Assembly (NCBI GenBank): GCA_963813135.1
Contig: CAWEXY010000022.1
Span: 8,453 to 72,452 of the forward strand
Reading direction: 5' to 3'
Source: an uncultured Verrucomicrobiae bacterium
Lineage (GTDB): Bacteria > Chlamydiota > Chlamydiia > Chlamydiales > Rhabdochlamydiaceae
DNA: 64,000 nucleotides
Shown: piece after piece, positions 56,603 through 59,600 of the stretch
How the letters are laid out: each line of letters opens with the position of its first letter
How positions within the stretch are numbered: position 1 is the first letter of the stretch
Translations under genes and position numbers: made by a program
Notes under the pieces: generated by a model
Database searches by the model: none
What the model saw: only the letters and a program-made list of their open reading frames with translations
Told to the model about the DNA's origin: nothing

Positions 56603-59600
56603 ATGGCTAAGCGCATCGCCTCCTCCCCTACCGACTTCGTTGAAATGCTCAAAGAAAAAGCACCGCCTGTTGATGAAAAAGCAAAAGCGCTCAGCCGCTT
56701 TACCGTCGTCAAACGCAATGGCGCCATCGTCCCGTTCCGCCGCGAGCGGATCGCCCGGGCGATCAACCTCGCCTTTCATGACACCAAAAAAGTGAAGCTC
56801 GAAGAATCTCTTCCGGAGAAATGGCAATCTGAAGTTGAACGGGTGACCGATCAAGTGATCGATCTTCTCATTTCTCAATTTCAAAAAGGCGCTAGTCTTA
56901 CTGTAGAGGGGATCCAAGACGCTGTAGAAGTCACGCTCATGAAACTGGGCCATCACGATGTCGCACGCGACTACATCATCTACCGCGACCAACATAAACA
57001 TCTGCGCGAAGACTCTCCCCAAAATCTTAAAGTGCACCGCCACGATGGATCGCTGGTCCGCTTCAATCCTATGAAAATTGCCGCCTCCATTGAAGAGGCG
57101 TTCCGCCGCGCCCAAGGAATTGTGGGGCAAACTCCCTCCGACATGGTCGATGCCGTCAACCTTCTTACCGAAAAAGTCGTTGAGCGCGCGGTAGCCATGA
57201 CCAAAGCAGGACAGCCTCTCTATGTGCATATGATCCAAGATGAGATCGAACACCTTCTAATGAAGGAAGGGTTCTTTACGGTCGCTAAAGATTACATTCT
57301 CTACCGCGCTTCGATCGGCGAGCAGACGGTTCCAGCTGCGCCAGAAAAAGAGGGGCAGACCAAACGGGAATTCCACATCACAATGGCCGATGGATCTAAG
57401 CGCCTGCTCACGGAAGCGCAGCTGAAGAGCCGTATCACGTATGCCTGCCGCGGGCTTAAGGAAGTCTCCGCAGAAGAACTCCTGGAGACGACGATCACCA
57501 ACTTCTACGAAGGGATCAAAGAGAGCGAAATCGACCAGGCCACCATTATGGCGGCGCGCGCTAAAATTGAAATTGAACCGGCCTATTCTAAGGTCGCCTC
57601 CCGCCTCCTCTGCGATGTCCTCTATCGCGAGGCGATGGAAGTCAGCGCGCTGGAGCCCTCCCTCGAGTCGTCGCACCGCGCCTACTTCAAGAAATATATC
57701 AAGAAAGGGATCTCCCTGCAGCGCCTCACTCCCTCTCTCCTCGAGTTTGACCTCGACAAACTGAGTAAAGCGCTCGATATGAAGCGCGACGACCTCTTTG
57801 GATATCTCGGCACGCAAACTCTTTACGACCGCTATTTCATCCATGACAATGAGCGCCGCATGGAAACTCCCCAGATTTTCTGGATGCGCGTCGCGATGGG
57901 CCTTTCCCTGAGCGAAGGCGAGCAAAAAAATGAGCGCGCCATCGAATTTTACAACGTACTTTCCTCCTTCTACTTCACGTCCGCCACGCCGACGCTGTTC
58001 AACTCGGGCACGATGCACTCGCAGCTGAGTTCGTGCTACCTCTCGACTGTCATGGATGACCTGGGCCACATCTTTAAAGTCGTCTCCGACGATGCGCAGC
58101 TCTCCAAATGGGCAGGCGGCATCGGCAATGACTGGTCCAATGTCCGTGCAACAGGCTCCGTCATCAAAGGAACTAACGGCACGCAGCCAAGGCGTGATCC
58201 CTTTCCTCAAAGTCGCCAACGATACAGCTGTAGCGGTGAACCAATGTTTTGCTCCCGACACAATGATCTATACTTCGGAAGGAGTGAAGCCGATATCTGA
58301 GGTCGAAGCCGGACGATTTAGTGCTCGGCGTCAGCGGAACGTACAGAGAAGTACTCGAAAAATTTGCGTACAATCAAAAAGATCCGATGGTCGCCGTCGA
58401 CGATGAAACATGCGCTCGAGCCTATCTCGGTGACTGCCGGCCATCCTTTCTATGCCATCCGCGGCGTGCCTATGGAGCAAGCCAACGCATCGCACAATGC
58501 AATGGATTAAAAAAGGTAAAGTTCAAGTTGAGTGGGTCGATGCAGGCAAGCTCCAAAAAGGCGACTACATTGCCCAAGTGATCCCCACCGAAATCGTCGT
58601 CCACCGAAGGCATCGGCGAAGAAGATGCGCGCCTCTATGGCATTCTTCTTGGCGACGGCCACCTCTCCAAAGATGGCCAGCAATGGGGCGTTTCAGGCAA
58701 TCCGCAAGTCGATGCTCACCTTGAATTTGTCCGCAATTATCTTCAGAGCCGCGGCATCCATTTCTGGGAAACAGGACGAGGCGAAAACTATGCCCAAATT
58801 CATTGGGCTGCAGGACGCGGCGCCGTACGCGATGCGACAACAGGCCGCATCGTTGGCAGCGGAGAGCCCACACTCCCCTTTGAGCTATGACGATATCTAT
58901 GATGCTCAAAGACAAAAACACATCGCTCCTGCGATTGTCCCATCTCCCCCGTCCGCAGACGCTGGCGCTCCTCCAAGGACTTTTAGAGACAGACGGCAAT
59001 GTCTCCCGCGGAAAAGAGCTCACCTTCACCAACACCTCTCAACCTCTCGTTGAAGGACTCCGTTATCAGTGCCTGCGTCTCGGCATTCCTACTTCAGGAC
59101 AATTCCGCGTGCGTCAAAACGACCATGTTGGAAAACGATCTGATGGTTCGACTAGCCCAGTTTAAAGGAGAGACTACCTGCTATGACGTCCGAATCCCCG
59201 CCACTAAAGAGCTCGCAGACAAAGTCGGCTGCGCAAGCGGTGACCAAACAAAATTGGCTAACATGTGGACAATTCCTCTTCACCCGCGTCAAAAAATGCG
59301 ATCTCCATCCGCGTAACTCCCTTTGTCTGCGATCTTGTTGTCGAAGACGATGAGTCGTACATGACGACCGCCGGCCTTGCCCATAACGGCGGCAAGCGCA
59401 AAGGGGCGATGTGCGCCTATCTTGAGACATGGCACCTCGATATCGAAGACTTCCTCGAGCTGCGAAAAAATACCGGCGATGACCGACGCCGCACCCACGA
59501 CATGAACACCGCCAACTGGATCCCCGACCTCTTCATGAAGCGGGTCAGAGAAAACGGCATGTGGACCCTCTTTAGCCCCAAGCGATGTCCCCGATCTGCA

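Follow-up and report, generated by a model that had tools for sequence, protein, structure and literature searches.

A widespread family of ribonucleotide reductase inteins with glycine at the +1 position and a candidate route for their splicing

An intein in loop 2 of a class I ribonucleotide reductase

The window—the whole stretch of 64,000 nucleotides analysed here—carries a gene for the α subunit of a class I ribonucleotide reductase (RNR), nrdA, followed by the β-subunit gene, nrdB (Table 1). The Pfam matches of nrdA (ATP-cone, Ribonuc_red_lgN and Ribonuc_red_lgC) come in pieces spread over several reading frames, and its closest NrdA relatives in a protein search are labelled Chlamydiota or Rhabdochlamydiaceae. 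The gene is interrupted by an element whose N-junction reads GTG AAC CAA at 58236-58244 and then TGT at 58245 (VNQ/CFA, the slash marking the junction), and whose C-junction reads CAT AAC at 59382-59387 and then GGC GGC AAG CGC AAA GGG (HN/GGKRKGA), with glycine at +1. A sequence-only reading of the window had placed both junctions at these positions, and its proposal that removing the element restores the host protein agrees with the empty alleles of relatives, which read NQ/GG(K/R)R (39 of 50 parsed alleles). It was also right that the site is loop 2 of RNR: in an alignment to solved RNRs Gln-1 corresponds to yeast Gln288 and Arg+4 to yeast Arg293, which in the available portion of PMC4728125 are equated with Gln294 and Arg298 in loop 2 of the E. 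coli enzyme. According to the same portion, specificity effectors are read by backbone atoms of loop 2, the loop 2 Gln transmits specificity through its backbone carbonyl and side chain, and the E. coli Arg298Ala mutant has almost no activity.

Table 1. Features of the intein-bearing nrdA locus in the window
Feature	Coordinates	Strand	Remarks
nrdA, class I RNR α with ATP cones, intein host	56603..60960	+	Pfam pieces, indel list
Gln-1, final N-extein residue, loop 2 specificity Gln (E. coli Gln294)	58242..58244	+	
Intein: Hint splicing domain with internal two-motif LAGLIDADG endonuclease	58245..59387	+	378 aa in relatives
Cys1	58245..58247	+	79/79 loci; 51/52 distant Gly+1 alleles, one Ser
Block B Thr-x-x-His (TAGH)	58433..58444	+	His 79/79, Thr 78/79
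LAGLIDADG motif 1 (LYGILLGDG)	58633..58659	+	GDG in 76/78 relatives
LAGLIDADG motif 2	58968..58997	+	ETDG in 76/78; Pfam LAGLIDADG_3
Block F	59325..59360	+	F:3 variable, Cys here; Asp F:4 (59331-59333) invariant
Block G His-Asn terminus	59382..59387	+	79/79 loci; proteins 119/120 HN, one SN
C-extein start GGKRKGA	59388..59408	+	Gly+1 59388-59390; substrate-binding Arg+4 59397-59399
nrdB (RNR β)	60984..62020, ends approximate	+	Pfam Ribonuc_red_sm; frameshifted too

The element is an in-frame insert in a conserved host protein, empty alleles of the site exist, and Hint blocks A, B, F and G can all be recognised, with VCDL at 59325-59336 opening block F in the window and E-S-Y appearing in block F of the family where many inteins show H-N-Y. 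The structure predicted for an intact relative (pLDDT 89.7, pTM 0.88) superposes on the TliVMA intein (7qsu) with a Z score of 29.7 and an rmsd of 3.3 over 311 aligned residues. Judged by its insertion, predicted fold and motifs, the element is an intein, presumably capable of self-excision and ligation. All the motifs listed in the sequence-only reading (Cys1, TAGH, two LAGLIDADG motifs and a terminal His-Asn) are present, but TAGH, both LAGLIDADG motifs and VCDL sit in different reading frames, which that reading did not report.

The window copy of the intein, at 1143 nt, equals the 1134 nt of its 378-aa relatives plus nine one-base insertions. Compared with a same-genus allele it has no deletion and no in-frame stop, its mismatches at codon positions 1, 2 and 3 number 42, 18 and 164, and its codons divide into 190 identical, 128 synonymous and 60 non-synonymous. 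Comparable one-base indels occur elsewhere in nrdA and nrdB relative to the same-genus allele, and long-ORF coverage falls near the contig end that holds nrdA, a drop seen at many other contig ends in the assembly too. Because of the contig-end position, the loss of long ORFs and the indels throughout nrdA and nrdB, we read the nine insertions as probable consensus or assembly errors, and since the window copy is frameshifted our analysis was built on intact relatives.

Several other observations concern this contig end and its genome. The same-genus allele (L015, from G001) itself loses its frame 32 codons past the intein, where there is a gap containing N; this break is probably an artefact of assembly. 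The tail of the window from about 62045 is probably foreign, forming a chimeric contig end: the segment 62045-64000 has a GC content of 62-70%, unlike the remainder, no match elsewhere in the genome and no match in a Pfam search, and a fragment within it reads like what we take to be a GMC oxidoreductase. The genome is 82% complete, and its only other RNR α sequence is a C-terminal nrdA piece on contig C30, where a second nrdA 3' half with nrdB (G000:C30:1-2226, 83.6% identical with many gaps) begins downstream of the intein site and likely stems from a strain or species, related to this one, that was binned with it. Further upstream in the window, at 51211-56224, lie intact plus-strand ORFs of 312, 483, 172, 391 and 261 aa without a Pfam match, the last of which presumably resemble chlamydial type III secretion translocator genes.

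Distribution and conservation of the Gly+1 family

Database searches uncovered a large Gly+1 family in bacteria and giant viruses. In a region search of 61 genomes, 53 matched, and of the 52 relative stretches fetched 50 could be parsed; 11 alleles carry an intein at the Gln-Gly bond and the other 39 are empty, and all 11 inteins have Gly+1 and reading frames open through the intein. A protein search returned 923 clusters at E<=1e-10, the best 120 of which all read Q/C…N/GG (Gly+1 in 120/120), and a scan of species genomes gave 421 confirmed stretches, with Gly+1 in 80/80 of those inspected, although these protein, locus and relative sets overlap, are not independent and comprise top matches only. 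One inspected locus, L033, is frameshifted after HNGGK; the 79 loci that could be parsed use GGC (53), GGT (13), GGG (7) and GGA (6) at +1. Since intact relatives, 120/120 proteins and 80/80 loci agree, Gly+1 is due neither to chance nor to error, just as had been supposed when it was judged an unlikely read error in the window. Carriers among the inspected loci are labelled, among others, as Chlamydiota, Gamma- and Betaproteobacteria and Actinomycetota, and they include cultured strains.

Serine also occurs at this site, which the sequence-only reading had not noted, nor had it seen how large the family is. In a profile search, 150 proteins were listed as 50%-identity representatives, and among the 73 of these with both junctions at the site, Gly+1 occurs in 52 and Ser+1 in 21. 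A viral scan in which +1 was left free gave 40 matches, 24 of them with Gly, 13 with Ser and 3 unrelated, and a second such scan gave Gly in 33/33. In the samples searched, Gly+1 is thus commoner than Ser+1 at the loop 2 site. An annotated phage collection yielded one weak unrelated match, while plasmids and a first viral scan yielded none, and a metagenome scan for L-[AV]-H-N-[S/T/C]-G-K-R-K-G-A, which does not count the Gly form, gave three matches, all virus/eukaryote-type Ser alleles. Most of the +1 codons in the parsed loci (66/79) are GGC or GGT, a single substitution away from Ser or Cys; no switch to either was seen among the bacterial-type carriers inspected, Ser being seen in viral RNRs. 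On a quick tree of whole inteins the Ser+1 alleles fall into two groups, both placed among lineages with Gly+1, with two Gly/Ser changes, and on a Hint-only tree with 12 outgroup inteins, whose root is weak and in which one outgroup is misplaced, a single Gly+1 clade is not rejected (p-AU 0.53). The tree allows, without showing it, that Gly+1 may be the original state at the site, with Ser+1 of the type found in Cafeteria roenbergensis virus (CroV) derived from it.

A few sequences depart from the common pattern. Rare ends among Gly+1 alleles are Ser-Asn (P0086), Thr-Asn (P0188), Lys-Asn (P0247) and Ser1 (P0162, P0177). Three intein homologs (P0130, P0137 and P0147) have flanks unlike RNR or lack the terminal Asn, and may be decayed copies or gene calls with frameshifts. 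A further intein sits at another RNR site in P0252 (about aa 214-396), and extra RNR-site inteins, some apparent by length or Pfam only, occur in P0058, P0092, P0110, P0118, P0160, P0166 and P0256; those inspected have an ordinary Cys+1.

The residues expected to act in splicing are constant. Across 79 aligned loci, Cys1, His66 (B:10), Asp360 (F:4), Tyr369, His377 and Asn378 are each found in 79/79. Of 78 rows, one having been dropped for a translation mismatch, 76 have intact endonuclease motifs; decay of these motifs is seen also in G025, G008 and G050. In 12 non-overlapping close pairs, dN/dS of the splicing (Hint) domain is 0.08-0.26 in 11 and 0.73 in one, while that of the endonuclease is 0.08-0.19 in 11 and 0.35 in one; the distribution of carriers is patchy. 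Six Gly+1 alleles (P0252, P0273, L188, L195, L202 and L207) are mini-inteins of 168-179 aa without an endonuclease, which retain Cys1, TxxH, Asp, Tyr and His-Asn within open RNR frames. As homing cannot maintain the splicing residues of a mini-intein, the host must do so.

Among 25 carrier genomes, neither another class I/II α subunit nor NrdD was found in 19, and six have another RNR (a second class I/II enzyme in five, NrdD in one); most are incomplete MAGs, the sole-RNR set including MAGs that are 99% and 100% complete and two cultured strains. On the extein tree, from which G001 was dropped as too short, 9 changes account for 10 carriers, the mean with shuffled labels being 9.2, and placing the carriers in one clade is rejected (p-AU 5e-5). 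No host column specific to carriers was found in the extein alignment of the parsed alleles. Carriers are thus scattered and show no host column of their own, which argues that the host enzyme, being unadapted, has to be restored. At the level of sequence, the Gly+1 feature is genuine, occurs widely and evolves under selection.

Candidate routes from precursor to reductase

As both junction reactions are apparently under selection, the intein is most likely released, and for a native Gln-Gly bond to form, the acyl group of the N-extein must end on the nitrogen of Gly+1. The conserved residues lead us to favour, as the probable route, Asn cyclisation that would free the Gly+1 amine for attack on the Cys1 thioester, restoring Gln-Gly. 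A mobile intein with Cys1 and His-Asn would have spread by LAGLIDADG homing into the Gln-Gly bond of loop 2. There, an N-S shift at Cys1, aided by the block B Thr and His and by Asp F:4, would turn Gln into a thioester; the terminal Asn would then cyclise with help from the penultimate His and release the α-amine of Gly+1; and this unhindered amine, kept near the thioester by the Hint fold and by RNR halves already associated with each other, would attack it to restore Gln-Gly. In the 79 loci neighbouring residues vary, but those that serve the two junction reactions do not, and Ser+1 alleles at the same site have an identical catalytic set. No Hint position separates all Gly+1 members from Ser+1 members (52 and 21 alleles), so no dedicated catalyst of aminolysis was found. 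The nearest differences, a Pro that follows the block B His (47/52 Gly+1 versus 0/21 Ser+1) and the block F His (23/52 Gly+1 versus 18/21 Ser+1), are both confounded by clade. An isopeptide through Lys+3 was rejected as a candidate, since +3 varies between alleles (K, R, V, G, N or S).

Aminolysis by a free amine has been proposed for the splicing of type A bacterial intein-like (BIL) domains, in which splicing is poor and cleavage products dominate, and a BIL from M. magnetotacticum spliced only once its Tyr+1 was changed to Cys (available portion of PMC4031507); what is accessible of another review describes type A BILs as incapable of ligation (PMC7765530). This predominance of cleavage favours a different outcome for the Gly+1 intein, double cleavage without ligation, in which hydrolysis of the thioester at Gln-1 together with Asn cyclisation would set the intein free, and the α subunit would then consist of two chains, broken within loop 2, and still work. 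We regard this as unlikely, if clearly the most serious competitor, as it needs the identical invariant residues, and the invariance of both intein ends fits double cleavage and splicing equally. The functional two-chain NrdA of phage Aeh1 is a loose precedent (PMC3045599, the phage being named in PMC3653736, both in their available portions), and loop 2 is flexible. Against this, the accessible text of PMC3045599 indicates that the split Aeh1 enzyme required new interaction tails, whereas the carriers show no host-specific change, and the nick would directly follow the Gln that transmits specificity (available portion of PMC4728125). Carriers also alternate with empty alleles on the host tree.

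Ligation might also be achieved in another order or through another residue, which strikes us as distinctly less probable again. In an imide branch, the amide nitrogen of Gly+1 would attack the thioester first and Asn would resolve the branch; in a relay, the acyl group would pass through the downstream host Cys+9 and then to the Gly amine. The backbone nitrogens of Asn-Gly are unusually reactive, which counts for the former, and an imide branch would couple the steps and spare wasteful cleavage, but no precedent for it was found in the literature searched. Cys+9 is present in 78/79 bacterial carriers; it is a host residue that occurs in empty alleles too, and many viral Gly+1 alleles lack it (GGGKRKGSFA).

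It is very doubtful that there is no processing at all, the intein being dead in a pseudogene or the insert being tolerated by the enzyme. The window copy is frameshifted as assembled and 6/25 carriers have another RNR, but the open frames of relatives, purifying selection, the mini-inteins and the sole-RNR status of carriers all speak against this reading, as do the substitutions in the window, which are mostly synonymous and include no stops. Finally, an internal branch of the class 3 kind, by way of the block F Cys, offered in the sequence-only reading and prompted by the VCDL of the window, is contradicted by conservation and extremely improbable, that Cys sitting at F:3, adjoining Asp F:4, and occurring in 6/79 loci and 26/120 proteins, with Asp at F:4 in all and the WCT triplet missing, and class 3 splicing still requiring a +1 nucleophile (PMC2807308 and PMC7765530, available portions).

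Novelty, meaning and comparison with known systems

No description of a Gly+1 RNR intein was found in the full-text literature, a search outside which lie InBase and the primary BIL papers. InBase appears to hold an entry 'Avin RIR1 BIL' from Azotobacter vinelandii, which we take to be an RNR intein-like element without a +1 nucleophile. No experimental study of this Azotobacter RIR1 element was found in the literature searched, and the sequence of a Gly+1 allele may already be on record, for example in InBase. The available part of the supplement of PMC4760082 scores A. vinelandii as intein-positive, and no Gly+1 RNR intein is discussed in the available portions of PMC10710043, PMC5784728, PMC4760082, PMC3196547, PMC8772380 and PMC3653736. 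The loop 2 insertion site itself is already known, since the junction of the RNR intein of CroV is tabulated there and marked InBase (accessible part of the PMC5784728 supplement).

None of the defined intein classes accounts for the Gly+1 feature. To our knowledge, each of the three requires a Cys, Ser or Thr at +1, and splicing without a +1 nucleophile has been proposed for BIL domains only, where cleavage dominates. Hundreds of sequences put the Gly+1 junction in a loop that RNR requires, and frequently no second RNR was found in the genome, so either efficient nucleophile-free splicing exists or RNR works while cut in its specificity loop, and each would be new. We put at about even the chances that this is a fourth mechanistic class, a large and old homing lineage that reaches across several bacterial phyla and into giant viruses and whose members splice efficiently without a +1 nucleophile. 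If so, its natural mini-inteins of ~170 aa would be ready ligases for Gln-Gly that leave no Cys, Ser or Thr scar, the choice of junctions for intein-based protein ligation would widen, and surveys that filter for Cys, Ser or Thr at +1 would be overlooking a large intein family. The Ser+1 alleles at the same site constitute a built-in control.

The class 1 LAGLIDADG inteins TliVMA, PI-SceI and PI-PfuI have in common with the Gly+1 intein the two-domain fold, blocks A, B, F and G and Asp F:4. Cys1 and the block B Thr and His of class 1 are present, but the +1 residue is Gly in 120/120 proteins and 80/80 loci, and without Cys, Ser or Thr there the branched intermediate at block G cannot form, unlike in class 1. 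Class 3 inteins are described as having a WCT triplet in which the Cys occupies F:4, and as a rule lacking an N-terminal nucleophile (available portion of PMC2807308), and the Gly+1 intein has Asp at F:4 and Cys1 in 79/79 loci each.

Among the closest known systems is the RNR α intein of CroV (YP_003970087 / YP_003970182), which occupies the same site (YVNQ/C…HN/SGRRKGS), was retrieved as a homolog of the family (P0211, E 1.1e-42) and places the Gly+1 intein in the RIR1 allelic group of CroV. The two share Cys1, TxxH, Asp F:4 and His-Asn, but CroV has Ser+1, which makes canonical splicing possible, and keeps the block F His (NHNY), whereas the Gly+1 family has Gly+1 and E-S-Y. At the same site, a 134-aa Ser+1 mini-intein on a viral contig (L150) offers a natural control for the Gly+1 mini-inteins. 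The split NrdA of phage Aeh1 resembles the Gly+1 system in that a mobile endonuclease (a mobE insertion) interrupts nrdA and the enzyme is functional (PMC3045599 and PMC3653736, available portions); unlike the Gly+1 intein, it is encoded by two genes, has gained interaction tails and lacks a Hint domain.

A further parallel is with type A BILs, with which the Gly+1 RNR intein shares the Hint fold, Cys1 and a His-Asn end without a +1 nucleophile. The BIL structure 2lwy superposes on the Hint part of our model with a Z score of 17.4 and an rmsd of 1.5 over 129 aligned residues, a match that ordinary inteins tie. Type A BILs sit in hypervariable regions of non-conserved proteins, according to the available portion of PMC7765530, whereas the Gly+1 intein lies in a conserved loop, loop 2, of an essential enzyme, has a homing endonuclease and has empty alleles. 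The Gly+1 RNR intein probably works like a type A BIL, while its site and its endonuclease set it apart from that group.
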